64,000 nucleotides of DNA from an uncultured Muribaculaceae bacterium (GCA_910576935.1 CAJTKG010000010.1:14918-78917); one strand, 5' to 3'. Shown: positions 35,044 to 61,100, counted from the first letter of the stretch. Program-made: numbers and translations. The notes: generated from the letters alone by a model not told the origin.

Positions 35044-37833
35044 TTATTTCATACCTATTGTTTCGACAAACTTTATGGGTCGCTCGACAGTGTCGCTGTA
35101 GACATTTCCGAATGAGTCGGTGACTCGCACTGTCACGGGCTTGTCGGCCGTTGTGGTAGTGACGGTAAACATATGACCCGTGCGATTGGTGGTGAAGCTC
35201 TCGGTGATCGTGCCGGTAGCTTTCCATTTGGCTACATCATAAACGAGCGTGTGGAGGGGATCCTCGGCATTGATACGCTTTGGCGTCAGCTGAGTGTCAC
35301 CTTCAAAAATCTCTACCTTCCAATCGATGTCATAGTTGAAAACATTGACATAGACCGTATTGTCGGCGATTGTGGCATAGTTTGTGCGAGTAGGATATTT
35401 GGCGAGAATCGCTTTTATATTGGCATTGGTTTTATAGAAGTCCTTTACTGTGTTCATGTCGTAGACGCGGAACTGCGGATCTGACGTCTCTTCGAGCGAA
35501 TGGTATTTCCACCACAGGCGGTCGCCCTTGACGTTATAAGAGGCGAAACCGCCCGGAGAACCGTCCTTGCAGATATGACGCGAGGTATAGCGTCCTGTCC
35601 ACCACCATGTCGCACAGACTGCGGCGACATTGTTCTCGTGGATATTGGGATACTTGTCGGGATGAGCATGATAGTTGTAGTGGGTGTGACCCGAGAGGAG
35701 ATTGACCTGACTGAAGTCTTTGAGAATCTTGGCCAAAGCGTCTGACGAACCGGAGTTGAGAGCAGCCGACACCTTGAAGTTGCCGTCGGTAGATAACGAC
35801 CAGTTCTGTATGTGGAACATCACTACAACCGGGCAGTCTTTGTCTTTGACAAGCTTGATGTCACGACGCAGCCACTCAAGTTGCTCGTCGGTGTAATACT
35901 GACCGTAGTCGCGACTGCCCGCGACACCGACAGGATAGCTTGCTCCGGCTACGGCCTTGTTGGTATAGATTATGTCGTCAAGCACTACATAATGAACCTT
36001 GCCGAGATTAAACGAATAATATGACGGAGCTATCGTCTGACGGAATTTCTGAGCCGAGAGGAAGTCGGTGTCTGCACCCGCCGGTATCGAAGGGTCATTG
36101 TCGTGATTGCCCATGACGGGGAAAAGCATCAGAGGATATTTGTTTTCGGTCAACGTGTTGACAAACTCGGGCAAACCGTAGCCGTTAGATGTCCAGTACT
36201 GATCCCATGTTAGGTCACCGAGTATTGTCGAATAAATCTTCTTGCCGGGGTTAGCTTTTATAAACTCATTTAGACGAGGGATGAAACGACTTTTGAACTG
36301 TGCGAGGTCGCGTGTGCGGTTGGCAAGATGGGTGTCAGCGCCGACAACAAGAATATGGTCATCATTGTCGGCACGACGTAGCACAAAGTCATGGTTTTCT
36401 ATAACATCGACATCCGCAGACGTCAATTTCGAATAGATCTTTACCTGAAAACCGTTTGTCTCGGTCTGCGGTTCATAACCCGATGGAAGACTGTAGAAGA
36501 CATATCCGTAGCGTTTTGTCGAGGAGAGCCAATAGCGTCCCTCGTCATCTGTCGTTGTGACTTCGATACCGTCAGAGACAGCGACACCGGCAACGCCTCG
36601 GCCTTCACAAAGCACAGAGCCTTTGATGTTGGCCGACGGATGTGCCACCTTATCTAATGTATAGCTGAAGAGCGGACAGTAATTATATAGAGCCACCGGT
36701 CTATCCGCGCCGGGCAGGATGACTGTCTCTGTTGCCGAATCGCGAAGATTGCCGCGGCTGCCACAGAGCGGTCCGACACTCTCGCTGTATGACCCGTAGA
36801 CAATGCGGTCGCCGGCGGCGAGCTGCTCGTTAGTGGTGATGGTGACTGTACCGTCAGGGTTGACATCGATGGCGGTAATATTCAGATGCCGCTCGCTGTC
36901 GCCGACACCGCGTGCCACGGTAAAACCGAGATTGTCTGCGAGCGCGATATTGACGTCATCTATGTCGAGATTGCCCGAAGGCACATTGAATCTGACGGTA
37001 ACAGTATTATCGGAAGCCTCAACGCCCTTTACATAAATCGGAGCGACAGGTTTGTCGAACGCACGGGCTATGTATGCGCCTATGACAAACTGACCGTGCG
37101 ACGACGGGCTGTAAAGATCGGCGCCACGGTCAAACATATATGTGGGCGCGGCAAAAGTAAAGCGGTCGGGATAGTCGACACACAAATCGAGCTGGGCGGC
37201 GGCGACATTGCCATAGCTGCTGCCTCTCTCGCCGCTTATAGTGCGATGGAGTGACTGCGAGGAGTTCTGCACTATAATGATTTTGACCTGTCGACCGGCG
37301 GCTGTGCTTATCATCTCCTGCAACGACAGCATAGCCGATTTATAGCTGTCGGCGCTCATGCCTGAGGCGATATCGGCCTCACCCTGTATCCACGCGATCG
37401 CAGCGGGAGCGGTTTCATAGGCCTTTATATCATTAACAAGTGCTTTGCCGAGAGCGGCATCGGCGGCAAAATCCTTGACAGAGGCATATTCGCGGCCTAT
37501 GACCTCGAAAACATAACTGTTGTCGGCACATCCCGCCTCGGCAAAAGCGGCAGCGATACCTGACGCGGCTGTCTGGGCGCGTCCGTCTGCGATAGCCTCG
37601 CGCAGAGACTGTGTCGCACCGATAGCCGATGGATTGCGGAGTCCGGCAGCATTAACAAGCTGACGCCCGACGCCGTCGCTGACGAGCGTCGAGTCGCCCG
37701 AACCGAGAGCAGAGGCGTCACCGGCGATTATAAACGGCGTCACCGCCTGCGCCGCGATAGTGCCGACGAGAGACATGGCGCCGATAAATAGTGATTTTAT
37801 GATTGATTTCATGAGATTTTCGATATTTGGCAT
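35044..37833 (-). CDS. Secreted fusion protein: SASA/CE6-like esterase domain + carboxypeptidase-regulatory-like + calcineurin-like metallophosphoesterase
   Basis: 929 aa with a signal peptide. The N-terminal roughly 260 aa carry IIAGDASALG and AWIQGEADI, the GxS and QGE(S/A)D blocks of sialate O-acetylesterase-like domains. The C-terminal roughly 530 aa carry GDLTWDQ, GNHDND and GHTHYNYH, and are paralogous to 40475-42124. Confidence 0.7.
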   Translation of the reverse strand: MPNIENLMKSIIKSLFIGAMSLVGTIAAQAVTPFIIAGDASALGSGDSTLVSDGVGRQLVNAAGLRNPSAIGATQSLREAIADGRAQTAASGIAAAFAEAGCADNSYVFEVIGREYASVKDFAADAALGKALVNDIKAYETAPAAIAWIQGEADIASGMSADSYKSAMLSLQEMISTAAGRQVKIIIVQNSSQSLHRTISGERGSSYGNVAAAQLDLCVDYPDRFTFAAPTYMFDRGADLYSPSSHGQFVIGAYIARAFDKPVAPIYVKGVEASDNTVTVRFNVPSGNLDIDDVNIALADNLGFTVARGVGDSERHLNITAIDVNPDGTVTITTNEQLAAGDRIVYGSYSESVGPLCGSRGNLRDSATETVILPGADRPVALYNYCPLFSYTLDKVAHPSANIKGSVLCEGRGVAGVAVSDGIEVTTTDDEGRYWLSSTKRYGYVFYSLPSGYEPQTETNGFQVKIYSKLTSADVDVIENHDFVLRRADNDDHILVVGADTHLANRTRDLAQFKSRFIPRLNEFIKANPGKKIYSTILGDLTWDQYWTSNGYGLPEFVNTLTENKYPLMLFPVMGNHDNDPSIPAGADTDFLSAQKFRQTIAPSYYSFNLGKVHYVVLDDIIYTNKAVAGASYPVGVAGSRDYGQYYTDEQLEWLRRDIKLVKDKDCPVVVMFHIQNWSLSTDGNFKVSAALNSGSSDALAKILKDFSQVNLLSGHTHYNYHAHPDKYPNIHENNVAAVCATWWWTGRYTSRHICKDGSPGGFASYNVKGDRLWWKYHSLEETSDPQFRVYDMNTVKDFYKTNANIKAILAKYPTRTNYATIADNTVYVNVFNYDIDWKVEIFEGDTQLTPKRINAEDPLHTLVYDVAKWKATGTITESFTTNRTGHMFTVTTTTADKPVTVRVTDSFGNVYSDTVERPIKFVETIGMK

Positions 37834-37837
37834 GTTG

Positions 37838-40438
37838 TTATCTGATAATGAGTCGTGTTGAGGCGCTCGCGCCGTCTCCGGTTTCAGCTGTCACTATATA
37901 GAGACCGCTCGGCAGCCACGATACATCGAGTTGCGTCGTGTTTGACGTCATCACCGTGGCTCCGCCGAGGCTGACGAGCGACACGCGTGCAATCGGCCTG
38001 ACCGAAACGATATTGACCGTCGTAGTAGCCGGATTGGGATAGACGCCGAGTCTGATATCATCGCCGGGGATGACCGTGATATCACCGACGCCATCGTTTT
38101 CTGTCGTTTCGCGGGCACCGACCGACGGTATCGCAGGTCGCAGATTGCCACAGGCATCGATAGATGGGACAAGCTCTACTCCGTCGTGTTTATAGCTTGA
38201 CAGGCCGACACCTGCGGCAGGTGATCGGGCGGCAAGGACAAGAGTGTGATCATCGCCGAGAGCCGGCATACCGTCATCATAACTGGCAAAAATTTCCGAT
38301 AAGGCATCATCGTTGATTATTGACGATGTCATAGAACCGACAGTCTGAGCCGTACCGAAGAGGTTGTTAGAGCCGATAAAACTTCCCCCGTTGAGAGCTA
38401 TGCGGGCGCCCGTGCCATAGAAGAGGTCGTTTACCAGAGTCACATCAGGAGCAATAGTAGCTTTGGTAGCGTTAATTTTAATATCGGGCACATCGCCGTT
38501 GCCTACAAATGTCGAGTTGACAATGTAGCTCGGTTGCTGCGGCGAACGGGCCGAGTTATAGAACTCGATGCCCGACGCGCTTTTACCTTCATTTTGATAT
38601 AAAGTCAGGTTTGTCATCACAGCGCCGGCATTCATGCCGTTGATGACAATAGCACCAACTCCTGTCGAAGCGTGAGACGAACGGTTGCCTATGAAACTGC
38701 AAGACATAATCGTCAGCGGCTCGGTAGCCGTCGTCGACGAGAATGAGAGCGCACCACCGCGCGAGCCTGTCGTCATATTATTTACAAATAACGAATTACT
38801 TATCGTTACACCGGGGCCACCGGGAACAGACACGGCCGCGCCTGTCGCCGAGGTGTTACCCTCGAAACGGCAGCCTGTAATCTCGGCATCTACGCTCAGC
38901 GACAGAGCACCGCCCTGCGTCGAGGCCGAGCACCCTTCAAAACGGCATCCGCTAAAAAGCATGCGCGTATTTGGCGCGGTTGCGTTGACAGCGCCGCCCG
39001 AAGCCGCCGATTTGCCATTGGTGAAAGTCACGCGGTCGAAGACGACACTTAGTTCGCCGTCAGCACGCGAGTCACTTATATAGACGATGGCACCGTTAGA
39101 TTGACTGCCGCCGACGAGTTTAAGATCTGAAATCATCAGCATCGAGCCGTCAGCCTTGGGGATTATCTCAAAGATACGGTGACGTGACTCACCGGGCGAG
39201 GCCACAGAGACTGTCGCGCCCCGGCCGTCTATTGTGATCGTCTTGTCTGACAGATTGATGGCCTCGGTCAGAGTCACGGCATCGACATCGAAGACAATCA
39301 AGTCGCCGGGAAGAGCCTCGGCCACACAGGCGCGGAGCGAACCGGCACCGGCGTCGGCCGATGACGTGACATGAAGAGTGCGCTCGGCCGGTCTCGGATT
39401 GCCGATACCGTAGACAGGTTCGACACAGACGCCGTCAACACGTGCGCCGGCCGGCACAGCCAATGTCAGGCGGTCACCCATGGTCTCGCCGTCGTAATCG
39501 AGTGTGGTGCTAAGACGCTGCCATCCCGGCGAGGCCTTCAGCGGCAGCGACGCCACAGTCCCGAGGCGTTCGCTCCCGACGGCGACAAAACCATCTACAG
39601 GTGTATTGACATAGAAATTGAGCGAGTTGCGTATCGAGCCGCCGAGGTCGATATTGTCAGACGTAAACGACGATGCTTTGGCAGCGCAGAGTGAATAATC
39701 AAATGTGTAGACACCTGCACTTTTTACAGCTGCGCCCGCCACCGACCAGTGGCGTGGCCGCGCCACCTCACCGTCCCAAAGTGTAAAAGAGCCGTCTGTG
39801 ACAGCGTTGACTACATTGACGCCGTCGAGGGCTCGCAATTCCGCACCGCCTATCATCATGGCGGCATGACGCTGCGACACGACACTCTTCATACTGCTGT
39901 CAGTCTGGGGCATCATATGGACCGCCAAAGATGTGAGATCTCCGGCATCGGTGATGTCGCTGAGATCAAAATCGAGAACGGCTTTGGTCCAGACGCCGGG
40001 TATAAAACGGCTGTCGTTGCCCGAGTCGAGCGTCAAAGATGCAACTGTGCGGCCGGTCGTACCAAGACGCGCCGCCAATGTCAGACAGGCGTCGGGTGTC
40101 AGAAACTTGACCATCGCCGTAAAGCGGTATTTTTTTGCTGCTACCATCGTAATCCCCTGCGAAAACGATGTTGCAAACGGGTCATCACTCTCCGACAGGT
40201 ATTTTATGCGGGCATACATCACCGAGTCATCGTTTTCGGGAGTCATTTTGCGACAGATTTCGCCGGCAGCGGGACGCACGACAGAATGCGTCCAACGCCC
40301 TGCACGGCCTGTGTTGTCACTGCCATAGAGCGGAGCTGTCTCGAGATAAGGGTCCGTGATAAGGTTTTCGGCCGATATCGACACCGCAGCTGTCGCCGAC
40401 GCCATCATTATCAAAGCCATCAGTCTGTTGTTTCTCAT
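37838..40438 (-). CDS. T9SS-secreted right-handed beta-helix protein with N-terminal CBM-like modules
   Basis: 866 aa with a signal peptide. It has repeated GGA(V/L)-type beta-helix rungs (GGAVNATA, GGALSLSV, GGALSFSS) and a C-terminal Por/T9SS sorting domain (VYPNPATTTVNI...LPSGLYIVTAETGDG...RLIIR). Confidence 0.75.
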   Translation of the reverse strand: MRNNRLMALIMMASATAAVSISAENLITDPYLETAPLYGSDNTGRAGRWTHSVVRPAAGEICRKMTPENDDSVMYARIKYLSESDDPFATSFSQGITMVAAKKYRFTAMVKFLTPDACLTLAARLGTTGRTVASLTLDSGNDSRFIPGVWTKAVLDFDLSDITDAGDLTSLAVHMMPQTDSSMKSVVSQRHAAMMIGGAELRALDGVNVVNAVTDGSFTLWDGEVARPRHWSVAGAAVKSAGVYTFDYSLCAAKASSFTSDNIDLGGSIRNSLNFYVNTPVDGFVAVGSERLGTVASLPLKASPGWQRLSTTLDYDGETMGDRLTLAVPAGARVDGVCVEPVYGIGNPRPAERTLHVTSSADAGAGSLRACVAEALPGDLIVFDVDAVTLTEAINLSDKTITIDGRGATVSVASPGESRHRIFEIIPKADGSMLMISDLKLVGGSQSNGAIVYISDSRADGELSVVFDRVTFTNGKSAASGGAVNATAPNTRMLFSGCRFEGCSASTQGGALSLSVDAEITGCRFEGNTSATGAAVSVPGGPGVTISNSLFVNNMTTGSRGGALSFSSTTATEPLTIMSCSFIGNRSSHASTGVGAIVINGMNAGAVMTNLTLYQNEGKSASGIEFYNSARSPQQPSYIVNSTFVGNGDVPDIKINATKATIAPDVTLVNDLFYGTGARIALNGGSFIGSNNLFGTAQTVGSMTSSIINDDALSEIFASYDDGMPALGDDHTLVLAARSPAAGVGLSSYKHDGVELVPSIDACGNLRPAIPSVGARETTENDGVGDITVIPGDDIRLGVYPNPATTTVNIVSVRPIARVSLVSLGGATVMTSNTTQLDVSWLPSGLYIVTAETGDGASASTRLIIR

Positions 40439-40474
40439 GGATTTATTTGGTTTTTAATTTGTTTCATCGAGATT

Positions 40475-42124
40475 TTATTGATGTTTCAATCCTAAATTGA
40501 TATCGAAAGCGCGTGGTCTCTCGACAGTTTCGGTGAAGACGCGGCCACGGCCGTCGGTGACCCTGACGGTGACAGGAGTATCGGCATCTGCTGTCACGGC
40601 TTCGAAGATGTGTGAAGTAGGCGTAGTGGCAAAAACGCCCGGCACTTTGTTCGAGAGAGCAAACACCGGCAGATCATAGGCCAATGTATGTAGCGGGTCC
40701 TCGGCAACTATGCGACGCACCTCGAGAGGTCTGTCACCCTCGAAGATTTCGACAAGCCAGTCGTTGTCATAGTCGAAGACATTGACATAGACCGTATTAT
40801 CGGCAATCTCGGCATAGTCGGTACGGTTTCGGCAAACCTCGAGCATTGCTCGTGGCGCTTCTTCGTCGCGATAGTAGTCGCGCACTGTGTTCATGTCATA
40901 TACGCGAAAATGTTTGTTGTCCTCACGATCGGTACCTATATATTCCGATGCGACGGTTTTACCGTCGATATCATAAAGGGCAAAACCGCCGGGCGAGCCG
41001 TCGACACATATATGTCTGTCTGAAAGGTGACCCGTCCACCACCATGTGGCACAGATGGCCGCGACGTTGTTCTCGTGTATATTGGGGTGATTGTCGGGAT
41101 GGGCGTGATAATTATAGTGGGTGTGACCCGACAACAGTGTCACATTCTCGAAATCGCCGACAATATCGGCCAAAGCCTCCGACGATCCGTCGGCGAGATT
41201 TGCCCGCGTCGCAAAACTGCCGTCATCGAGCTTGAGACGCCAAGCCGGCACATGGAACATTATCACTACCGGCGTCGTTTTGTCCTCGACAAGGGCCAGA
41301 TCGCGACGCAGCCAGTCGAGCTGGTCGTCGGTATACCGGCGCTCATAGTTGCGGTTGCCGGCGACACCGCGTTTATAACGTCGCCCGTCGGTACGATCGT
41401 TGCGGTAGACCACATCGTCGAGAACGACATAATGCACCTTGCCGAGATTGAACGAATAGAACGACGGCGCGACCGTCTGTCTGAAAGGCTCCGACGACAA
41501 CATGTCGGTATCGTCACCGGCCGGAACCGACGGGTCGTTGTCATGGTTGCCTATGACAGGGAAAAGCATCACCGGATAGCCGGCATCGGCCATAGTCGCG
41601 ACAAATTCAGGCAGCCCGTAACTGTTGGTTGTCCAGAACTGATCCCACGTCAGATCGCCAAGTATAGTAGAGTAGATCTTTTTACCCGGATTATCAGCCA
41701 CTATACCTTTGACCGGACTGACAAAAAGGCTGTCAAACTGCTCGAGATCGCCCAGCCGATGTGCCAGATGGCTGTCAGCGCCGACAATCATGAGGTGGCT
41801 GTCGTTATCGACCCGCCGCAAGGCAAAGTCGTGCGTCGCGTCACGGTCTCCGTCAACTGCAGCGAATATTCTGACCTGAAAACCGTTGTCATAAGTCTCG
41901 GGCTCATACCCGCCGGGCAACGTATAGAAAATGATGCCATAGGGCATCGCGCCGCTCAGAGAATATCGCCCGAGCGAATCGGTCAGAACGATGCTGACAC
42001 CATCTGAGACAGGCACTCCGGCGACACCGTTACCCTCGCAGGTTATGCGCCCTGTGACAGTCGAGGCCGATGCGGCCGCAAAAAACGTCACCGCCGCCAA
42101 TAACGCAAATATCGTCTTTCTCAT
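40475..42124 (-). CDS. Secreted calcineurin-like metallophosphoesterase (MetallophosN/C-type)
   Basis: 549 aa with a signal peptide plus GDLTWDQ, GNHDND and GHTHYNYH. It is a paralogue of the C-terminal part of 35044-37833. Confidence 0.8.
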   Translation of the reverse strand: MRKTIFALLAAVTFFAAASASTVTGRITCEGNGVAGVPVSDGVSIVLTDSLGRYSLSGAMPYGIIFYTLPGGYEPETYDNGFQVRIFAAVDGDRDATHDFALRRVDNDSHLMIVGADSHLAHRLGDLEQFDSLFVSPVKGIVADNPGKKIYSTILGDLTWDQFWTTNSYGLPEFVATMADAGYPVMLFPVIGNHDNDPSVPAGDDTDMLSSEPFRQTVAPSFYSFNLGKVHYVVLDDVVYRNDRTDGRRYKRGVAGNRNYERRYTDDQLDWLRRDLALVEDKTTPVVIMFHVPAWRLKLDDGSFATRANLADGSSEALADIVGDFENVTLLSGHTHYNYHAHPDNHPNIHENNVAAICATWWWTGHLSDRHICVDGSPGGFALYDIDGKTVASEYIGTDREDNKHFRVYDMNTVRDYYRDEEAPRAMLEVCRNRTDYAEIADNTVYVNVFDYDNDWLVEIFEGDRPLEVRRIVAEDPLHTLAYDLPVFALSNKVPGVFATTPTSHIFEAVTADADTPVTVRVTDGRGRVFTETVERPRAFDINLGLKHQ

Positions 42125-42930: not shown

Positions 42931-42963
42931 AATCTACGATTTTCAAGGCTTTTATAACATATG

Positions 42964-43132
42964 CAAAGATACGAATAAGTCGAATACAAAGCCAAACTTG
43001 TTTGGGCTTTGTTGAGCGTGAGCATCTTCGCGCTTGCGCAAAGATACGAATAAGTCGAGTGCAAAAGCAAATTTATTTAATTTTGCCGAGCGAAAGTATC
43101 TAAGACAAAGTCAAAGATACGAATAAGTCGAA
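42964..43132. repeat. Three direct copies (about 74-nt period) of caaagatacgaataagtcga, each containing a minus-strand -7 box
   Basis: Copies lie at 42964-42984, 43039-43059 and 43112-43132. The reverse complement is tcgacttattcgTATCTTTG. The first copy is 34 nt upstream of the esterase ATG. Spacers are partly similar, and the first contains the hairpin acaaagccaaac-tt-gtttgggctttgt. Confidence 0.8.
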
Positions 43133-43177
43133 TATAAAGTCAAAAATAACGTATTCCTCATCCGTTCATACCCATTC

Positions 43178-43282
43178 TTATGCAAAATCATAAAATATGC
43201 AAATGAACACGACGTATAGAAATAAATAAGCGCCTGTTCTTTTAAGGATTTTTATTAGCCGCGTAGTTTTGTCATGCGACAT
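43178..43282 (-). pseudogene. Remnant third copy of the island membrane-protein (immunity-like) gene
   Basis: Manual translation gives MSHDKTTRLIKILKRTGAYLFLYVVFICIFYDFA-stop. It matches the first roughly 30 aa of the two upstream paralogues (MPQDKTTRLIKILKRTGAYLFLYVGFIYIFY). Confidence 0.7.
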
Positions 43283-43336
43283 AATCAGTTTGATTTCTGG
43301 ATGTAATTGCCGGTAGGATTCCAATCAATGATAGAC

Positions 43337-43669
43337 TTAAAAGCAACCTGAATAATTTCCGTGAAAGCGATTCTCTATAACTGTATAACATAATGAGAGT
43401 ACGCAAAGCGTTACAAGCAAAATCGATTCAAAGACCACTATCGTTTTTAAGCCTATTGTTTTTTTTATCAACAGATGATTTACCAATGAGTACAATAATA
43501 TTAGGACTAAAGACTTAAGTAGTACCAACATCAGTCCGATTGGTTTGGGACAAAGCCACGCATCATAAGCGTAGTCATAAAATATGTATATGAACCCGAC
43601 GTATAGAAATAAATATGCGCCTGTCCTTTTAAGAATTTTTATCAGCCGAGTAGTTTTGTCCTGTGGCAT
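43337..43669 (-). CDS. Small membrane protein, truncated paralogue of 43672-44094 (immunity-like)
   Basis: 110 aa, near-identical to the neighbour over about 105 aa. A roughly 40-nt deletion relative to the neighbour shifts the frame and removes the last TM helix. Confidence 0.6.
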   Translation of the reverse strand: MPQDKTTRLIKILKRTGAYLFLYVGFIYIFYDYAYDAWLCPKPIGLMLVLLKSLVLILLYSLVNHLLIKKTIGLKTIVVFESILLVTLCVLSLCYTVIENRFHGNYSGCF

Positions 43670-43671
43670 AA

Positions 43672-44094
43672 TCAGTTTGATTTTTTGTATGTAATTGCCA
43701 ATAGTATTCCACTAAATAATAGACTTAAAAGCAGAATCCTATAATCTGTTTTGATATAACGTATTATAAGATCTGAAAAATTTCCGTGAGAGCGATTTTC
43801 TATCGCTGCGTAACATGTCATGAGGACATAAAATATTACAAGCAAAATTGATTCAAAGATCACTACCGTTTTTAAGCCTACTGTTTTTTTTATCAACAGA
43901 TGATTCACCAATGAGTACAATAACAATAGGCCTAAAGACCTAAGTAACGCCATCATCAGTCCGATTGGTTTGGCATAAAGCCATGCACGATAAGCGTAAT
44001 AATAAAATATGTATATGAACCCGACGTATAGAAATAAATATGCGCCTGTTCTTTTAAGAATTTTTATCAGCCGGGTAGTTTTGTCCTGTGGCAT
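43672..44094 (-). CDS. Small 4-TM membrane protein, putative immunity protein for the upstream toxin
   Basis: 140 aa with four hydrophobic helices. It starts 2 nt after the toxin stop. No family was recognised, so the assignment rests on position. Confidence 0.5.
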   Translation of the reverse strand: MPQDKTTRLIKILKRTGAYLFLYVGFIYIFYYYAYRAWLYAKPIGLMMALLRSLGLLLLYSLVNHLLIKKTVGLKTVVIFESILLVIFYVLMTCYAAIENRSHGNFSDLIIRYIKTDYRILLLSLLFSGILLAITYKKSN

Positions 44095-44096
44095 AA

Positions 44097-44801
44097 TCAG
44101 TTTGATTTCTGGATGTAATTACCGGTAGGATTCCACTCAATAATAGACTTAAAAGCAGAGCTGGGTACAATGTCTATGTCGCATTTCATCTTATATCCGT
44201 TGAATACATCAATAAGGCCAAACGGTGTCGACATCGGGATTACAGAGGGGACCATTTTAGGCTCGGAAACAGGAATCCCCGCATCGATCATTACCTTTTG
44301 TACCGCTTGAGCACAATTGTTAAAGATTAAATTATATTCTGTTTCTGCAATCTTGGTAAAACTGTTCCTCATTATCGCATCTTGCTCCGGGGTCGTCGAA
44401 ATCTGAAATCCTTCTGAAAAATCGAAATTATTCATAGTCTTATCTTCTTTACTACCACTATTTTTTACGTTATATGAAGAATCTAAAAATTCCTGCGGAG
44501 AATCCCAAGAACCTACTGCAACATCGTTGAACGGACGGCCGCCTGAATGACCTTTTGTTATAGGGTTTATAACATTGTTACCATTAATCGAATAATATTG
44601 CCATTTCTCATTCTCATTCTGTATCAACATCGCCAAATGTTCACCTTCTGTATAATTCAATACGACTATATCATTCCCTGTCGGGTCTACATAGTTCACC
44701 GGATTTCCAGAGCAATAAGAGAATGGCGAAAGATGAGAATAGGCATGACCGCTAAATGGATAAAGCAGTACAAACAATAGCATGAGGTTTAGATATTTCA
44801 T
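44097..44801 (-). CDS. Orphan polymorphic-toxin C-terminal module (Rhs/YD core-tip motif + putative His-Cys papain-fold domain)
   Basis: 234 aa. Residues about 25-43, SPFSYCSGNPVNYVDPTGN, match the conserved end of Rhs/YD-repeat cores (SPYxYCxNNPVxxxDPxG) that precedes variable toxin tips. Downstream, EGEHLAMLIQ and YNLIFNNCAQAV resemble the His...NC dyad of PPPDE/LRAT-like peptidase folds. An ATGA overlap couples it to the upstream gene. Confidence 0.55.
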   Translation of the reverse strand: MKYLNLMLLFVLLYPFSGHAYSHLSPFSYCSGNPVNYVDPTGNDIVVLNYTEGEHLAMLIQNENEKWQYYSINGNNVINPITKGHSGGRPFNDVAVGSWDSPQEFLDSSYNVKNSGSKEDKTMNNFDFSEGFQISTTPEQDAIMRNSFTKIAETEYNLIFNNCAQAVQKVMIDAGIPVSEPKMVPSVIPMSTPFGLIDVFNGYKMKCDIDIVPSSAFKSIIEWNPTGNYIQKSN

Positions 44802-45832
44802 TTCGGCAGTAATTTTTCTTGTGTATATTTTTTAGCTTCTATAAATTGGCGTTCTCTACGCTGTCTGATTTCTTCGGTTTCTTCTGTCATATATGTTTTA
44901 TAAAAGCACCATTCCGTATCATTCATCAAATATATTAAATAAGCGGCATATTCGTCAACTATATTTCCGTTTAATGAAAGATAATCACGGATCATGCGTT
45001 CGAGAGACTTACCTCGAATAATCCATGCATTCGGATTCATCGGATAGAACTCTAAAGACCTGCTTGCGCAGTAGTAAGTAAACTCATCATACCGCTTGAA
45101 TTTTTCGCAATACCCAAATGCCAGTTCTCCCATCTGACAAGCGACTGTCTGAATATCCGTCAAAGGCGTCATGTAAGTTCCGACATAAACAGCTGAATCA
45201 CACACCTCAAAATCTTGTTTGATCCACCACGTCGGTGGCATCTGGTGTGTTGTGAGTTCAAGATTTATCCATTCTTCGGGTATTAGGTTATCCTCATCTT
45301 TATACATTATATAACAATGTCCGGGCGCTTGCGCCAAAGACACATTTGCACCTATTTCTTTGGCAAGTATTTTATACATCCATGGTAGTGAACGACATTG
45401 CCCTTTATGCGTTTTCAATACTATTGATACAAATTGTCGTTCCCAATTTTCCCTGTCGTTTGAGTAACTGTCATAATCATAAGTATACGGTTGATATCCG
45501 TTTCCCGAATAAGGCCTGAAGAAATATTCGTTTAAAGCCATCTGTTTACCCGTTTTGTAAGAACTGAGCTTGTTTTTGCAATAAAACAGATTGAGAAACT
45601 TAACTATCCGATCGATTTCATCGCAAAAATCTGTCTTATAATCCAATTTCCCTTCATAATAAGCCCATTCGGCAAGAAAGACGGCTCTTTTTATCGACAA
45701 CGTGTCTCGTCCGGCAAGCATATCTGACATTTCATTGAATGCCGCCACATAATAAGATTCAATCCTCTTTGCTTGCGCTGTAGCTGAAAGCTGTAACAAA
45801 GGTAATAGAAGATATATACATAATTTCTTCAT
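44798..45832 (-). CDS. Secreted transglutaminase-like (Transglut_core2-like) protein
   Basis: The ATG at 45832 (MKKLCIYLLLPLLQLSATAQA) gives a signal peptide. KGQCRSLPWMYKILAKEIGANVSLAQAPGHCYIMYKDED resembles the Cys/His core of transglutaminase-like cysteine proteinase folds. Confidence 0.45.
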   Translation of the reverse strand: MKKLCIYLLLPLLQLSATAQAKRIESYYVAAFNEMSDMLAGRDTLSIKRAVFLAEWAYYEGKLDYKTDFCDEIDRIVKFLNLFYCKNKLSSYKTGKQMALNEYFFRPYSGNGYQPYTYDYDSYSNDRENWERQFVSIVLKTHKGQCRSLPWMYKILAKEIGANVSLAQAPGHCYIMYKDEDNLIPEEWINLELTTHQMPPTWWIKQDFEVCDSAVYVGTYMTPLTDIQTVACQMGELAFGYCEKFKRYDEFTYYCASRSLEFYPMNPNAWIIRGKSLERMIRDYLSLNGNIVDEYAAYLIYLMNDTEWCFYKTYMTEETEEIRQRRERQFIEAKKYTQEKLLPK

Positions 45833-45837
45833 ACTCA

Positions 45838-45845
45838 CAAATGTA
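45838..45845 (-). promoter_or_regulatory. -7 box (TACATTTG) abutting the first island gene
   Basis: caaatgta on the plus strand ends 5 nt from the ATG at 45832, a leaderless-like arrangement. Confidence 0.3.
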
Positions 45846-45921
45846 ATACCATCTTTATTGATCTACAACTAAAATGATGTGTTATACAACATGATTTTAT
45901 TGTATTTCGTGTAAAATGAAC

Positions 45922-45940
45922 CGACTTATTCGTATCTTTG
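45922..45940 (+). repeat. Inverted copy of the 19-nt repeat (cgacttattcgTATCTTTG) = probable promoter of the CDF gene
   Basis: Perfect 19-nt reverse complement of 43112-43130. It contains TAnnTTTG 46 nt upstream of the ATG at 45987. Confidence 0.7.
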
Positions 45941-45986
45941 AGGGATTCTTAACAACAGCTCGATAAAGGGCGGCTCAATCTTGGCA

Positions 45987-54845: not shown

Positions 54846-57800
54846 ATGAGCACCAAAACACCCATACCGTCACCTCCGCCGTCAACATCACCGACCGGTA
54901 CAGCCGGCTTCGAAGACCTCGGTTCGGGGACTTATATCGCCACCGGAGGAACGGCGATAGCTACCGGAGGAACGGCCGTGGTCAACGACAATGGCGGTGG
55001 TGCGCCACTCCCTGACGACCGCCCCGGCTACAGGCTCGGGAAACTCGACTTCAAAGTAATAAAGCGCCTGTCGTCGGCCACGGGCGAGGCGTCTGTGTTT
55101 TTAGCCGAAAACGGCGGCAATAAATTCGCCATCAAGCTTTACCGACCGGGGCATCGCCCCGACGACGGAGTCATCTATCGTCTTTGCCGCGCCCGAGGCA
55201 ACGGCCTGACCGTCGACGTCTATGACCATGGCGTATGGCATGACCCCGACGCCCCGTCGGTAGAACGATACTATGAAGTTCAGCGCTACTACCCCGCCGG
55301 CGGTCTCGGGCAAGAGAACATCCGCGGCGACGAGCTGCGATTCCGCGAGATAGCGCTCAATATGGCTTCGGCCATTGATTTCTGTCACAGCCACAGAATA
55401 TTACACCGCGACATCAAACCGGCCAATTTCCTCTATGCCGACGGCTCTCACCGCCGGTTCGTTCTCGCTGACTTCGGCATCGCACGCGGCATCGCCGCCG
55501 ACGGCCGTTGCAAGATCGACAGCGGCCGCACACCTGTCTATGCCGCACCCGAATGCTATATCAGCATCGACCGCCGTCTCATCGACGTCGACCGCAAGAG
55601 CGACTACTATGCCATGGGCATGTCGCTCCTCGCCCTCTGGATAGGCGAAGACAGCCTGCGCGGCAACGAGCGCGAACTCATCATGAAGAAACAGAACGAG
55701 GCTCTGCCCTACCCCGACGACATGTCGGCCCACAGTCTCTCGCTCATCAAGGCGCTCACACGTCGCGACATATCGCAGCGCGCCGATTTTGCCACCATAA
55801 AACGCTGGGCCGCAGGCGAGACTGTCTTCGACATGTCAGACTATCACAAAAACGCCACAGGATTCAGAATCATTTTCAACTCGTCGCGCAACATGGTGGC
55901 AAACAGTCCCGCCGAGCTGGCCGCCATGATGTGGGCCGAACCTGCTTTGGCCATAAAATATCTATATAGCGGCACACTGAAGAAATGGTTCGCCGACCTT
56001 GGACGCCCCGAGACGGCTGTCGAGATCGACAATATCGCCGAAGAACTATATCCACACAACCATAAAGCCGGCCTTTTCGCGGCTTGCCTGCTGCTCGACC
56101 CCGACATGCCGTTCACAGGCATCAAAGGCAACAGCATCGTAACCCCCGTCGACATCGCCGCCGAACTGTGGGCCAACGCCTCGACCTACAAAGAACTGCT
56201 GACCGGCGCCGACGCGCTGCTCTATGTCTACATGCGCTCGTGTGGTCTCGACAATCTCGCCGACAAATATCCGCGTCTTATAGGCCGCGACGCCGACTGC
56301 TATCTCTTCGACCTTATATATACCCTCGACCCTTCGCTGCCTTATCCCGTAAAAGACAAAAAAGGCAAATGGCACAATGCCCGCAGCGTCAACGATATTA
56401 TCGCCGTCGCCCACGACCCCGGACTCGACCCCGTAACGCTCAAGCTGATCAGAGGAGACGATTTTGTCAACTGGCTCTCGGCACGCGACAAAGCCCTCGC
56501 CGGCAAAGTCGCCGAAACCGCTCGACGCACACACGACGGCTGGGCAACGCTCTATGCCCTTGCGCCGGCGGCGTCTTATAATTTCGTCACCGACTCCAAC
56601 GCCATCGACTATCTCTTCACACCCGCGCAGATCGCCGAAGAGATAAGCCGCGAGATGGCCGGTCTTTCGACCCTCGGTCTTAAACTCACCGAGCAGCTGG
56701 GCCACAGCGCCTTCGACGGCTCTCGTCTCCACCGCTATCTCGAGTCGAAAGGTAAATTTGACCGGCAGATAAGTTGGGTTCGCTACTGCAAAGATCTCAC
56801 ATCGACCGACAACGCCGGCAAGATCGGTCCTTACAACGACGACATCGCCACATATAAAATCATACGCGGCTGGGGAGGTTCGTGCCCCTACTATCCCTCG
56901 CAGGGACACGGCCGCAAACTCTTGAGTCTAGCCGACGTCGACAGATGTCCGTCACAGATATTACACTTCGAGAAACAGCGGCTGCCCGACTGGCTGACAG
57001 GATTCTTCCAGGAAAACCCATCGGCCGACTACAAGCGGCGGTCATATGCCGACCTTACGGGCGACTATTATGACTACCTCGTCAGACGACTGCCCGACTG
57101 CAACTACATCGCACGGTCGGCAAAGCTCGCCGCCACACTCAAAACAGCCATCGACGACGAGAAAAAGGCATGGAAGAATATAAGAACGATACAGTGGCTT
57201 ACCGTCCTGCTTTGCTTCGTCCCCATGCTAGCCACATTTATCATACTGTTCGTCACCGGTTTCAGCAACATCAGCCGGGCGCTGCGTCCGCTCATCGAGG
57301 CCTCGGGCCACTATGTCGGCATCGCCCTCGGCATCATCGGCGGCCTGGCAAGTCTGGCTTCCTCGCGCCCCAATCTTATTGCCGCAGGCATCGTCGGACT
57401 CATCATCTACGGCATCACGGTCTTCGTATTCAAATTTCTCGTTTTCCTCGCTCCGTGGCTGTTGGCAGCCCTGCTTGCGGTCGCAATCTGGTATTTCGGC
57501 CGCGACATCTTCACCTCCACCAAAAAGAAAGCAATGGCCGGCGTGTCTGCGTCATCGTTGAACGACACCGTGCGCCTCAGGCTCATGGGCGAGGCTTTCG
57601 GCACGACTTCAAAAATTTTCAAGCACAACAGCCCCGGCGATCTGCTCGACATGCTCCGGAACAGTACCGGCGAGGCGCGCTCCAAAATCAGGAAGATGCT
57701 GCGCTGCGGCGCAGTGTTGCTTGTGCTGTCGGCCGCCACAGTGGCCTTCAACATCTTCGTCACGCCATCACTCCTCGACAGCCGCGACGCCGCAGACGAA

Positions 57801-58136
57801 ATAAAGTCAGACTATATCGCCGAAATCTCCACATCGGTCCTCGACGGAGTCTGGACCGGCACGTTCGACGGTGTCGGCGCCACGATGACCGTCGCGACTT
57901 CCGACGGAGTCACACGCGCAAAAATCGTCATCTCATACACGACGCCGTTGCACCAGAGTGTAACAATTAAACCGTCAGGCAGCAACGGAGTCTCCATGAC
58001 GGTCATCTCATCGACGGGAGCCGTGAGCGGCCGGTATGACGCCACAATAACCTCAGACAACGGCTATATGACAGGCAAATATATTAACCCGACGACAGGG
58101 CGATCGCTCTTCTTCCAATTCTCAAAACAACCGTGA
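54846..58136 (+). CDS. Membrane-anchored Hanks-type Ser/Thr protein kinase with long helical repeat region, ~5 TM helices and small C-terminal beta domain
   Basis: FAIKLY (VAIK Lys), HRILHRDIKPANFL, LADFGIAR and TPVYAAPE. TM helices are encoded at about 57170-57760. The C-terminal roughly 110 aa are beta-rich. Confidence 0.85.
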   Translation: MSTKTPIPSPPPSTSPTGTAGFEDLGSGTYIATGGTAIATGGTAVVNDNGGGAPLPDDRPGYRLGKLDFKVIKRLSSATGEASVFLAENGGNKFAIKLYRPGHRPDDGVIYRLCRARGNGLTVDVYDHGVWHDPDAPSVERYYEVQRYYPAGGLGQENIRGDELRFREIALNMASAIDFCHSHRILHRDIKPANFLYADGSHRRFVLADFGIARGIAADGRCKIDSGRTPVYAAPECYISIDRRLIDVDRKSDYYAMGMSLLALWIGEDSLRGNERELIMKKQNEALPYPDDMSAHSLSLIKALTRRDISQRADFATIKRWAAGETVFDMSDYHKNATGFRIIFNSSRNMVANSPAELAAMMWAEPALAIKYLYSGTLKKWFADLGRPETAVEIDNIAEELYPHNHKAGLFAACLLLDPDMPFTGIKGNSIVTPVDIAAELWANASTYKELLTGADALLYVYMRSCGLDNLADKYPRLIGRDADCYLFDLIYTLDPSLPYPVKDKKGKWHNARSVNDIIAVAHDPGLDPVTLKLIRGDDFVNWLSARDKALAGKVAETARRTHDGWATLYALAPAASYNFVTDSNAIDYLFTPAQIAEEISREMAGLSTLGLKLTEQLGHSAFDGSRLHRYLESKGKFDRQISWVRYCKDLTSTDNAGKIGPYNDDIATYKIIRGWGGSCPYYPSQGHGRKLLSLADVDRCPSQILHFEKQRLPDWLTGFFQENPSADYKRRSYADLTGDYYDYLVRRLPDCNYIARSAKLAATLKTAIDDEKKAWKNIRTIQWLTVLLCFVPMLATFIILFVTGFSNISRALRPLIEASGHYVGIALGIIGGLASLASSRPNLIAAGIVGLIIYGITVFVFKFLVFLAPWLLAALLAVAIWYFGRDIFTSTKKKAMAGVSASSLNDTVRLRLMGEAFGTTSKIFKHNSPGDLLDMLRNSTGEARSKIRKMLRCGAVLLVLSAATVAFNIFVTPSLLDSRDAADEIKSDYIAEISTSVLDGVWTGTFDGVGATMTVATSDGVTRAKIVISYTTPLHQSVTIKPSGSNGVSMTVISSTGAVSGRYDATITSDNGYMTGKYINPTTGRSLFFQFSKQP

Positions 58137-61100
58137 ACACCGACAACAACTGCACCCGCTGCGGGGGCGCAAACCGCCCCGAAGCACGTTACTGCAAACA
58201 CTGTGGCAACGCCCTTGCCGCAACTTCAAAACAGTCAATAATCGACAGCATCAAAGGTCAGGCCAACGTCAGGGAACGACTCTCGGACATCTACGACAAG
58301 GCTGTGGCGATAAAAAACCGCGCCGACGCGACCAAAGTGAAGATGCGCCTCGAAATGAATTTCTTCATCACCGGAGCACCCGGCACAGGCAAGACCATGC
58401 TCGCCAACACAATAGCACGTCTGCTGACCGACGCCGGCGTCACATCGCAGCGGCCTCCCGTCACCGTCGACGCTGCCGACTACGAGCAATGGGCAAAAGA
58501 GATAGACAAGAACACCGACGCAATAAAAGACGGCATACTCATCATCGAGAATATCGGCAAACTCACAGGTCGCCAATATAGTGCCGGCGTCTCTCCACTC
58601 GACCCGCTGTTCTCGCGTCTGTCGCGCTGGTATGGCAATCCCGACCGTCCCGTCGTAATCCTGACAGGTCTGACCGACATGGCCGATTTCATGCGAAGCA
58701 ACACCAATGTAGGACGTTACTTCCCGTTTGTTTTCCACCTCGAACCATATACCATCGCCGAGATGGCCGACATCTGCGAGGCCATACTCGTCAACCGCTT
58801 CGGTCTCACCCTCGAGCCGGAGGCCCGCGAGAAACTCGAGCGCGTGTTCATCGACTCGCGCCGCGACCCGTCATCGACTGCCGACAACGGGCATCTCGCT
58901 GCACGCAAGGCCTCGGAAATATCTGTCGAACACACGGCCTATCCGGGCGACGACACCACCGTCGGCCCCGACGAGATTCCCGGCAAAGAGTTCATTGCCA
59001 AAACATTCGAGCAGGTCATCGCCGAGTTTGACAACTATGTCGGCATTGATGAGATCAAAGAGACCGTGCGCACCATAGCGGCCCGTGTCGACCGGCGACG
59101 ACACGCGATCGAAGCCGGCACATCCGACCCCAAGACTCCTCTCATCGACTCACACTACCAATTTCTCGGCAATCCCGGCACAGGCAAGACCACCGTCGCA
59201 CGCATCTTTGCCGACGCGCTCAAATCGCTCGGCGCACTCCCCGTAGGGCAGCTCGTCGAAGTCTCGCGCGATGACCTCGTCAGCAAATATGTCGGTGAGA
59301 CGCCTCAGCTCGTCAAAGCCGCTGTCGAAAGGGCCATAGGCGGTGTGCTCTTCATCGACGAAGCCTATCGGCTCTGCCGCGACAAAAGCGACACTTTCGG
59401 CCTCGAGGCCATCGAGAGCCTGCTTACATACACCGAGAACCGCCGTGGCGAATTCGTGCTCATCATGGCGGGGTATGCCAAAGAGATGGGTGAGCTGTCG
59501 GCCGTAAATGACGGCATAGCCTCGCGCATAAACAATGTGGTCTATTTCCGTGACTACAAACCCGAAGAACTAACCGAAATATTCCGACGCATGCTCGCCT
59601 CTACACCCGAGCGTTTCACCGTGCCCCCCGAGACCGATGCCCGACTGATCAACGTCTTCAACCGCATGTATCAGACACGCACCTCAAAATTCGGCAACGC
59701 CCGCGACGTGCGTAACGTGCTGACCACGGCCATCTCGCGCCACGCCGCCCGCATCGCCGCCCAAGGCCCGGCCGACGTCGACGACAACGTCCTGACTCTC
59801 AACGATATCGACCCCGGGGCGACATCGACCCCGACGACAGCCGACGAGATACTCGCGCCTCTCGACGGCCTCATTGGCATGGACAGTGTCCGCAGCCGTC
59901 TGCGCGCCCTCGCCAACAAGATGATCAAAGACCGCCGCCGCGCCGCCGCGCGCCCCGGCTCCACCGAGATACCGACAGTTCACATCGCCCTAACCGGCAA
60001 TCCCGGCACAGGAAAGACCGAGGTCGCCAAACGACTCGGCCGCGTATTCAAGGCAATGGGAATACTGCCGTCCGACAAAGTCGTCTTCCGCGAGCGCAAA
60101 ACCCTCCTCGACAGCTACTCCAACTCGGCCGCCGTCAACATGGACAAAGCCGTCGACGAAGCCATCGGCGGAGTCCTCTTCATCGACGAGGCATACAACC
60201 TCATGCCACTCGACCCCGGGGGCCGCGACAACATAGGCGCTCAGGCCGTCGAAGCCCTTATGACCCGTATGGTCAACGATGCCGGTAAATTCATCACCGT
60301 CATCGCCGGCTACAAAAATCTCATCGAAGAGTTTGTCAACAACGCCAACCCGGGGCTCAAAAGCCGCTTCACCACGTTCATCGATATTCCCGATTACAAC
60401 GCTTCCGAACTGTTCGACATCTACATGCAGCAGGTCGAACGCCGGGGCTACACTCTCACCCCCGAAGCCGTCGGGCGTCTGAAGCTTAAAATCGACGAAA
60501 TGATAACGTCGAAAGACGAGAGATTTGCCAATGCCCGCGACATCATAGCCCTGTTCAACGAGACATGCCTCCGGCAGGACTCACGTGTCGACGTCGACGC
60601 CCCCGTCGACCAACTCTATCTCATCACCGAAGACGATATCCCCTACACCCCGCCGCGCAAAATAGACCTCGCCGACTGCCTCGGCCGTCTCGACGATCTT
60701 ATCGGTCTCGACAGCGTCAAAAAATCGCTGCGCGACCTCGCCGACAGCATCACAGTCGAGCAACAGCGCGCAGCCATCGAAGGACGTCGGCCCGAATATG
60801 TCTACGACCACTACCTTTTCGTCGGCAATCCGGGGACAGGCAAAACAACCGTCGCCCGCATCATGGGCGAGATCATGCACTCGCTCGGTCTGCTACCGAG
60901 CAACAAAGTCATCGAAACCGTCGCCAAAGACTATATCGCGGGCTATGTGGGACAGACGGCACGTCAGACAGAGATCACCGTCAACCGCGCTCTCGGCGGT
61001 ATCCTCTTCATCGACGAGGCATACGGCCTCAACGACGGGCCGGGCGGATTCGGCAAAGACGTAATGCCGACACTTCTCACCAAACTTCTCGACTACAAAG

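Follow-up and report, generated by a model that had tools for sequence, protein, structure and literature searches.

A candidate three-part polymorphic toxin cassette with an Rhs-derived leader in an AT-rich island of a Muribaculaceae genome

A short AT-rich island in the genome of an uncultured Muribaculaceae bacterium raises the question of whether a gene that resembles the tip of an Rhs toxin, in a place devoid of Rhs genes, is a recombination remnant or part of a toxin system of its own. The island lies in a 64,000-nt stretch of DNA (GCA_910576935.1 CAJTKG010000010.1:14918-78917), referred to here as the window. It spans about 2.8 kb (about 43000-45900) between a CDF transporter gene (plus strand, ATG at 45987) and an esterase operon (minus strand, ATG at 42930), and all of its genes are on the minus strand. 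The GC content is 33-42%, against 52-59% in both flanks, which confirms the low-GC island described at this position by an earlier, sequence-only reading. The genes code for a secreted transglutaminase-like protein, termed here the helper, a putative toxin that carries the end of an Rhs core close to its N-terminus, and small membrane proteins that are candidate immunity proteins. The sequence-only reading took them for an orphan toxin/immunity cassette awaiting recombination. The explanation favored here, with a probability of roughly 0.6, is that the island would be a complete, horizontally acquired polymorphic toxin cassette of three parts: toxin, membrane immunity protein and a helper that recognises the leader of the toxin.

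The toxin precursor and its leader

The toxin open reading frame (ORF; 44097-44801, minus strand) codes for 234 aa, and its start overlaps the stop codon of the upstream helper gene in the tetranucleotide ATGA. Residues 1-20, MKYLNLMLLFVLLYPFSGHA (44742..44801), read directly from the sequence as a signal peptide, with predicted cleavage at GHA/YS and a conserved Cys 10 residues further on. The Rhs core-end motif SPFSYCSGNPVNYVDPTGN is found at residues 25-43 of the ORF, in a 22-residue leader, YSHLSPFSYCSGNPVNYVDPTG (44676..44741), that both a match to NCBIfam TIGR03696 (Rhs_assc_core) and the consensus of 47 loci described below identify as a relic of the Rhs-associated core end with its second DPxG. 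Toxin residues 23-42 correspond to model positions 56-75 of 76 (E = 2.7e-4); the score is 21.4 bits, with a cut-off of 32.5, and the core is incomplete, the first DPxG having been replaced by the signal peptide. Of 43 family members, 40 have a leader that the same model recognises. No Pfam match to RHS_repeat was obtained in the 234-aa toxin, and the YD shell is missing. Thus the core-end motif that the sequence-only reading had placed near the N-terminus of this ORF is backed by a profile match, and its proposal of an own start codon, a signal peptide and ATGA coupling to a secreted transglutaminase-like protein is also supported.

Nearly all of 130 toxin homologues are about 230 aa long and display a signal peptide followed by AYSHLSPYSYCGG(N/D)PVNC(I/V)DPTG. 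The short form with signal peptide, of the same start and length, is present in about 100 of the 120 homologues listed, and the view of it as an unusual, isolated case is not supported. About 10 longer homologues, of 316-404 aa, have a full Rhs core (…YDFGARxY…RF..PDP…LSPYxYCA.NPVN..DPTG) and no signal peptide; one such full-core orphan tip (P0100) is situated downstream of a 2043-aa Rhs protein, in a classical locus. In an exhaustive profile search, the toxin domain of the window was also found to cap the C-terminus of Rhs proteins of 900-2030 aa that have RHS_repeat and DUF6443 domains. Both leader and toxin domain thus descend from Rhs tips. The profile matches demonstrate this Rhs ancestry and the replacement of the shell by a predicted signal peptide.

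Conservation of the leader was assessed codon by codon over the 47 loci. Mean entropies at codon positions 1, 2 and 3 are 0.49, 0.51 and 1.40 bits, respectively, and every synonymous codon is represented at the invariant residues (S, P, Y, Y, C, P, D, P, G and the Ala at -1). The Ala at -1 directly precedes the conserved aromatic first residue of the leader in 46 of the 47 loci. To judge from these codon patterns, the leader is under purifying selection at the amino-acid level. Conserved residues together with free synonymous variation point to a function of the leader as protein, and argue against a mere handle for DNA recombination. Rhs1 has two DPLGL motifs, 17 residues apart; autocleavage of its C-terminus takes place after them, and the second supplies the catalytic Asp (PMC8636562). 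The leader retains the second DPxG motif only, and its Asp is invariant.

A cassette family across Bacteroidales

A survey with one genome per species yielded 54 helper loci, 50 of them with a downstream ORF. Muribaculaceae make up most of the hosts; Paludibacteraceae, Prevotella, Azobacteroides and other Bacteroidales account for the rest. In 47 of the 50 loci the downstream ORF consists of a signal peptide, the motif A/[YFW]xx[LI]SPY[SA]YC..[ND]P....DP[TDNS]G (the slash marks the cleavage site) and a variable domain, and in most surveyed loci it overlaps the helper gene by ATGA. The variable domains diverge right after the DPxG and form eight toxin clusters over the 47 loci, with matched immunity clusters. 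Cluster T0, an HExxH-containing type, is found in 27 loci, accompanied by immunity cluster I0 in 21; cluster T1, the type of the window, is found in 14, accompanied by I1 in 13; the six remaining clusters are singletons of one locus each, and each has one immunity cluster. Among the singleton tips are proteins with Pfam Toxin-JAB1 (E = 9e-27), a metzincin-like HExxHxxGxxH motif and a lipase-like GHSLGG motif. Toxin and immunity types, as clustered by sequence, demonstrably co-vary, and the toxin/immunity logic proposed earlier holds across loci. At one locus (L031) two toxin genes are about 1.3 kb apart, as tandem toxin/immunity pairs behind one helper.

A conserved N-terminal trafficking part, interchangeable C-terminal toxins and cognate immunity genes are the features of a polymorphic toxin system, and all three are found in these loci. 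The survey establishes helper, predicted toxin and predicted immunity protein as a conserved, autonomous and mobile polymorphic toxin cassette that occurs Bacteroidales-wide. The neighborhoods differ from cassette to cassette. One cassette adjoins pyrB (L002) and another gldLMN (L005), and a third (L188) is positioned between a relaxase gene and two integrase genes, in an apparent integrative mobile element. On a human-gut contig (L191) the trio is kept in the permuted order toxin-immunity-helper. Over 41 loci the mean GC fraction of the cassettes is 0.37, versus 0.50 in their flanks, and the difference exceeds 0.05 in 38; by base composition the cassette is foreign to its hosts. Thus cassettes at different sites, AT-rich in 38 of 41 hosts, were found, and not the same genes of host-like composition at one conserved locus. 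No match to known phages was obtained, and the only plasmid matches of the helper are distant Rhizobiaceae homologues.

These loci bear on the possibility that the gene is a classical orphan Rhs tip, i.e., a silent recombination stock for an rhs gene elsewhere, to which signal peptide and upstream gene are incidental. The leader is indeed an Rhs core end, and real orphan tips with the same toxin domain are found downstream of the 2043-aa Rhs. However, the homologues listed share start, signal peptide and length in the proportion given above, and synonymous change in the leader is saturated with the amino acids kept, the opposite of what is expected of a DNA recombination handle. The helper remains linked to the toxin in 47 of 50 loci, including permuted gene orders. 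Rhs motifs are absent within 6 kb in all 54 Bacteroidales loci, and no Rhs gene or motif was found anywhere in the 64-kb window, whose long ORFs are housekeeping genes; the earlier observation that the window has no Rhs core is borne out. A silent orphan tip is therefore considered very improbable. With the trio in 47 of 50 Bacteroidales loci and several toxins behind one leader, the picture of an orphan awaiting recombination is given up in favor of the three-part cassette.

Toxin domain, immunity array and helper

The toxin domain (residues 43-234, with the stop codon; 44097..44675, minus strand) was characterised by alignment invariants, an AlphaFold2 (AF2) model and Pfam matches. His55 and Cys163, the latter in an NNC motif, are invariant in 43 aligned sequences. 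In the AF2 model (pLDDT 85.7), H55 opens the strand 55-61 and C163 is at the N-terminus of the helix 163-173. The model thus displays the permuted papain-like order, with a His on a strand ahead of a Cys at a helix N-terminus. The LRAT, Lnb_N, PPPDE (C97) and TseH families belong to one clan, and sub-threshold Pfam matches to all four are present among the 43 members (LRAT in 12, Lnb_N in 12, Peptidase_C97 or PPPDE in 5, TseH in 3). C97, C92 and LRAT have been grouped as permuted NlpC/P60-like enzymes with membrane-related roles, and LRAT and C92 are lipid-acting at membranes (PMC10318531). The toxin is probably a divergent permuted papain-like cysteine hydrolase of the LRAT/PPPDE/NlpC-P60 type with a His55/Cys163 dyad. 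As in LRAT, PPPDE, C92 and TseH proteins, the His comes before the Cys; the NNC resembles the LRAT 'NC' motif, and membrane-related substrates would suit a membrane immunity protein. Unlike these families, the window toxin adds a C-terminal beta-hairpin/helix region at residues 182-231.

Downstream of the toxin gene, and on the same strand, are three copies of a membrane-protein gene. Copy 1 (43672-44094; 140 aa) follows the toxin after a 2-nt gap and has three native transmembrane (TM) segments plus a C-terminal extension of about 25 aa. Copy 2 (43337-43669; 110 aa) is 78% identical to copy 1 and of native length. Copy 3, recognised as an ORF and by repeat alignment, is truncated to 34 codons (43178-43282). 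The array is built of repeat units of 425 and 387 nt, each made up of a copy of the toxin gene's final ~62 nt and then the membrane-protein gene. A second copy of this toxin 3′ end (43672..43735, minus strand), at the repeat-unit boundary, has become the end of the immunity copy 1 gene; a third copy (43285..43348, minus strand), 95% identical over 61 nt, is between immunity copies 2 and 3. The fourth hydrophobic segment of the 140-aa protein, about 25 residues, is the toxin-tail copy translated in a shifted frame, and the 110-aa copy terminates where the toxin-tail copy starts. Native immunity homologues are 94-117 aa long, and therefore the native protein, of about 110 aa, has three TM segments and copy 2 is probably intact. 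Of the earlier description, a four-TM gene with two decaying copies, the 2-nt gap and the truncation of copy 3 stand; copy 2 is of native length, and the fourth TM segment is read-through into the toxin tail.

The same 344/234/140/110 arrangement is present in an independent metagenome assembly (L066). In a related metagenome-assembled genome (GCA_948646215.1; L001 6863-7903), compared with window positions 43337-44801, one 425-nt unit is missing. The toxin there is 13 residues short and has lost the invariant N224, P225 and G227, and the 110-aa immunity copy, which is the sole copy, follows directly; the missing unit reflects either real unequal crossing-over or collapse of the assembly. Immunity arrays with toxin-tail copies recur elsewhere, including the cultured isolate Heminiphilus faecis AM35, which has the toxin type of the window and three immunity copies (L021). 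The array of the window probably grew through recombination in the conserved 3′ end of the toxin gene. In other cassettes, and behind an orphan Rhs tip, the toxin domain of the window is likewise followed by a homologous TM protein. Immunity representatives of every Bacteroidales toxin type begin with a signal peptide, a lipobox or a TM segment. Judged by these N-termini, the predicted Bacteroidales immunity proteins are without exception extracytoplasmic, and therefore the toxins of the cassettes would act outside the cytoplasm.

Two further alternatives can be weighed against these data. The toxin may be aimed at the animal host or at other eukaryotes, with the small membrane protein in a different role. 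The carriers are gut Bacteroidales, and LRAT- and PPPDE-type enzymes are common among eukaryote-directed effectors. However, strict co-variation of toxin and immunity, and amplification of immunity genes, are characteristic of toxins able to harm close kin of their producer, and a eukaryotic target is considered very improbable. The island may, on the other hand, be no weapon: its secreted cysteine hydrolase and a membrane protein that regulates it could serve in envelope maintenance, the domain shared with Rhs tips being a coincidence. Enzymes of the NlpC/P60 clan often remodel cell walls or lipids (PMC10318531), and the island is present in each examined contig of the source species. Such a module does not fit the exchange of unrelated toxins, Toxin-JAB1 included, behind one leader and each with its own partner, nor the AHH nuclease tip that in Hoeflea follows a related alphaproteobacterial core-end leader. 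The presence of the window's toxin domain at full-length Rhs tips, the AT-richness in 38 of 41 hosts and the tandem immunity arrays are also against it, and an envelope-maintenance role is considered most improbable.

The helper gene (44798..45832, minus strand) codes for 344 aa. The mechanical ORF is of 346 aa (44798-45838) and begins at a GTG two codons earlier; the start is probably the ATG at 45832, which gives 344 aa as in homologues. The protein has a signal peptide, MKKLCIYLLLPLLQLSATAQA, cut ahead of a K, then a helical N-terminal region, a transglutaminase-like core (GQC148RSLPW ... APGH174CYIMYKDED183) and a helical, TPR-like C-terminal region. All of 20 divergent homologues, even those of 43-50% identity, share H144, G146, Q147, C148, H174, D183 and E188. 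Pfam Transglut_core2 (PF13369; SirB1-type transglutaminase plus TPR) matches 25 of 33 helper homologues, the best with E = 5.9e-5. A Foldseek search with the AF2 model of the helper (pLDDT 74.5) gave menin as best match, with a marginal E of 0.04, and TPR proteins next; menin is composed of a transglutaminase-like domain plus TPR. A sequence search of PDB with the helper found nothing. Public data contain 416 clustered homologues of the helper, 65-78% identical among Muribaculaceae; PF13369 proteins of Rhizobiaceae, annotated as 'transglutaminase family', are more distant, with identities of 30-33% (E = 1e-12 to 2e-9).

The helper was also considered as a general accessory of Bacteroidales Rhs proteins. 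This was rejected: a 387-aa protein upstream of a full-length Rhs (L064) is unrelated to it. The helper profile did not match the long Rhs homologues, and matched only two variants, P0095 (319 aa) and P0335 (263 aa). In these the first ~118-127 residues of the helper are fused to a toxin, and they look like deletion variants of the cassette.

It should be noted that the helper may not be a processing enzyme. It may instead be a non-catalytic chaperone or adaptor that binds the leader and keeps the toxin inactive or stable in the periplasm, or the receptor-binding or translocation subunit of a two-component toxin. Its TPR-like C-terminal region and menin-like fold are typical of peptide binders, and peptide binding or anchoring has been proposed for the transglutaminase domains of RHS toxins by Zhang et al. 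(PMC3482391). Because the helper is conserved while the toxins vary, whatever it binds would be the common leader. However, Cys148, His174, Asp183 and Glu188 are invariant to 43% identity, and the transglutaminase domains found in cis in RHS toxins are catalytically dead. Beyond these invariant catalytic residues nothing separates a chaperone from a catalyst, and a purely non-catalytic helper is regarded as somewhat unlikely.

Loci that are related to the cassette are found in Rhizobiaceae. Those resembling a split Rhs system are from R. lentis p2, Neorhizobium petrolearium, R. leguminosarum pRLN1 and Hoeflea marina. Three are on Rhizobiaceae plasmids (L192 2803-4613, L193 1179-9021 and L194 6285-9036) and have the gene order shell, PF13369 helper, core-end tip gene with signal peptide, and small variable gene. 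The shell, a TcdB/FG-GAP/RHS protein, is 1830-1855 aa long; its sequence breaks off directly behind …RYYDPAFGRF and has neither DPxG motifs nor a tip. The tip gene displays a signal peptide, the sequence RFISPDxxDP…GVGTNRYAY..NDPINKSDxNGH and a variable C-terminus. The helper homologues also bear a signal peptide. Hoeflea marina (L197 8001-10441) has helper and tip without a shell, the tip being an AHH nuclease with a cytoplasmic partner. In Agrobacterium vitis (L195 1-8918) a helper homologue follows a type II secretion system (T2SS) cluster, with no shell or tip gene adjacent, and in Neorhizobium petrolearium gspD adjoins the shell gene. A T2SS is not known from Bacteroidales.

The Rhizobiaceae loci are like the window in that a homologous helper is followed by a signal peptide, an Rhs core end and a variable tip, and by a small variable gene. 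They are unlike it in that the leader has both DPxG-type motifs, a shell gene is ahead of the helper in the three plasmids and at least one tip, the AHH nuclease, acts in the cytoplasm. A module of helper plus signal-peptide tip is therefore present in two phyla, and in one of them it is found just where an Rhs gene appears to be split. The Rhizobiaceae arrangement is either a working split Rhs system or an insertion scar. A more speculative reading, and a distinctly unlikely one, is that the helper is an enzyme acting in trans on the Rhs core-end peptide, replacing the aspartyl autoprotease of the shell in maturation, or joining or docking exported tips to a tip-less Rhs/Tc shell. The Rhizobiaceae loci would then be the ancestral split form, and the Bacteroidales cassettes a shell-independent derivative.

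Under the favored explanation, the three-part cassette, the toxin precursor would be exported by Sec and its signal peptide cleaved, so that the mature protein would consist of the 22-residue leader followed by the toxin domain. The helper, its Cys-His centre intact, would be a dedicated accessory; it would recognise the leader and process, hold or pass on the toxin once Sec has exported it. The toxin would most likely hydrolyse a lipid or lipid-linked component of the envelope from the periplasmic side, and the inner-membrane immunity protein with its three TM segments would neutralise it and shield the membrane of the producer. The conserved 3′ end of the toxin gene would be the site of recombination, unequal or homologous, by which additional immunity alleles are gained. 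Delivery would be to the periplasm of the target only, perhaps, as a guess, by outer-membrane vesicles. Toxicity, the target of the toxin, the role of the helper and the route out of the producer and into the target are thus all proposed from sequence.

Several results weigh against this proposal. The Pfam matches of the toxin family have E values of 0.005-0.15, all under the curated cut-offs. Foldseek with the toxin model against PDB and BFVD gave nothing significant (best E = 0.17-0.83, with a viral LRAT at 0.42), and a profile search of PDB sequences with the toxin likewise gave nothing significant. Because the Pfam matches are sub-threshold and no Foldseek neighbor is significant, the fold is regarded as probable, not established; the His-then-Cys papain-like domain suggested by the sequence-only reading is favored weakly by the LRAT/PPPDE/Lnb_N/TseH matches and finds no significant structural counterpart. 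For the helper of the window, the match to Transglut_core2 (E = 2.2e-3; 17.9 bits) is below the curated cut-off of 23.5. Its AF2 model is of low confidence at ~121-127, 145-147 and 195-222, and the geometry of the catalytic triad is therefore only predicted. No route across the outer membrane is evident in the window. The toxin has no lipobox, there being no Cys at +1 of the cleavage site, neither toxin nor helper has a Pfam match to a C-terminal sorting domain (Por_Secre_tail or similar) of the type IX secretion system (T9SS), and no secretion genes adjoin the cassette. Among the contigs obtained by the look-ups described below, no empty site was found in relatives, and the acquisition event is unseen.

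Island setting and known systems

The esterase protein and the CDF protein were each used to look up contigs that code for an identical protein. The island was present in 24 of 24 contigs in each of the two look-ups and looks fixed in the source species. Relatives lacking the island, which had been proposed as a check, did not appear: all contigs from these look-ups carry it. No tRNA or Rfam match was found in or near the island.

Each edge of the island displays a promoter-like repeat. Three tandem copies, of the form TTTG-N21-TATCTTTG and with a spacing of 73-75 nt, are upstream of the esterase operon (42963..43151, minus strand), and a single inverted copy of the 19-20-mer is at 45922..45941 (plus strand), 46 nt upstream of the CDF ATG. 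The element is about 40 nt long, …ATTTG.TTTTGC.CTCGACTTATTCGTATCTTTG, i.e., TTTG-N21-TAnnTTTG, which is the Bacteroidetes promoter form. The edges thereby share a perfect 19-20-nt inverted repeat with no further copies in the window, and a transposon with terminal inverted repeats was considered. Exact matches to the 19-nt core are present in at least 120 unrelated metagenome contigs, where it often forms arrays of 2-4 tandem copies about 75 nt apart, and in these contigs an ORF starts at a median of 30 nt downstream of the motif. The motif was not found at cassette loci of other species. Because it is a general motif of promoter form in at least 120 contigs, with an ORF close downstream, the transposon was rejected. 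The repeats are host features that mark the edges of the island and are outside of the cassette. It is uncommon for a promoter to be conserved so exactly over many genomes.

The esterase gene closes its operon. Upstream of it, in the same operon (35044-42124), are genes for two calcineurin-like phosphoesterases (MetallophosN/C) and for a protein of 866 aa whose C-terminus is a T9SS sorting domain; a T9SS is therefore present in the organism. Elsewhere in the window (54846-61477), a gene for a 1114-aa protein with three AAA+ ATPase modules begins within that for a Ser/Thr kinase-domain protein of 1096 aa. The pair has no relation to the island and may serve in conflict or signalling.

Muribaculaceae are dominant in the mouse gut, and little is known of how they fight one another. 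If the favored explanation is correct, they and several other Bacteroidales families would carry a widespread polymorphic toxin system in which a signal peptide, a 22-residue relic and a helper enzyme take the place of the Rhs shell. The catalogue of Rhs tips would gain a divergent cysteine-hydrolase toxin domain together with a membrane immunity family. The system would also raise the questions of how a small periplasmic protein gets to the periplasm of a neighbor, how a transglutaminase-fold enzyme acts on an Rhs core-end peptide, and whether Rhs can work in split form, as the Rhizobiaceae loci suggest. Should the helper act in trans, assembly of Rhs toxins and exchange of their tips could take place at the protein level.

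No published description of this arrangement was found in full-text searches of the literature or in a 2025 review of Bacteroidales antagonism; subscription-only papers are outside this scope. What comes closest in print is a transglutaminase domain at the N-terminus of RHS toxins, inactive through loss of the catalytic residues and joined in cis to the repeats that follow it (Zhang et al. 2012, PMC3482391). Like those proteins, which include Bacteroidetes examples, the cassette combines a transglutaminase-fold module behind a signal peptide with an Rhs-type polymorphic toxin that would use Sec-dependent export. Unlike them, the helper is a separate protein with invariant Cys and His, and there are no RHS repeats.

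The resemblance to Rhs/YD-repeat toxins and their orphan tips is in the leader, which represents the last ~20 residues of the core, including a DPxG, ahead of the toxin. Further points in common are a toxin domain that also occurs in full-length Rhs proteins, an immunity gene directly downstream and polymorphism of the toxins. The cassette differs in having neither a YD shell nor the first DPxG, in the Sec signal peptide that precedes the relic, in its conserved, separate helper gene and in not being downstream of an rhs gene.

A comparable arrangement is found in the MafA/MafB system of Neisseria, in which a polymorphic toxin with a Sec signal and a variable C-terminus is accompanied by a downstream immunity gene, extra cassettes of toxin ends and immunity genes, and a conserved upstream partner. 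The window toxin likewise has a Sec signal and a variable end, with immunity downstream and a conserved partner upstream. However, MafA is a lipoprotein, and the N-terminal part of MafB is a large DUF1020 domain; both are unrelated to the proteins of the window, and they belong to a different phylum.

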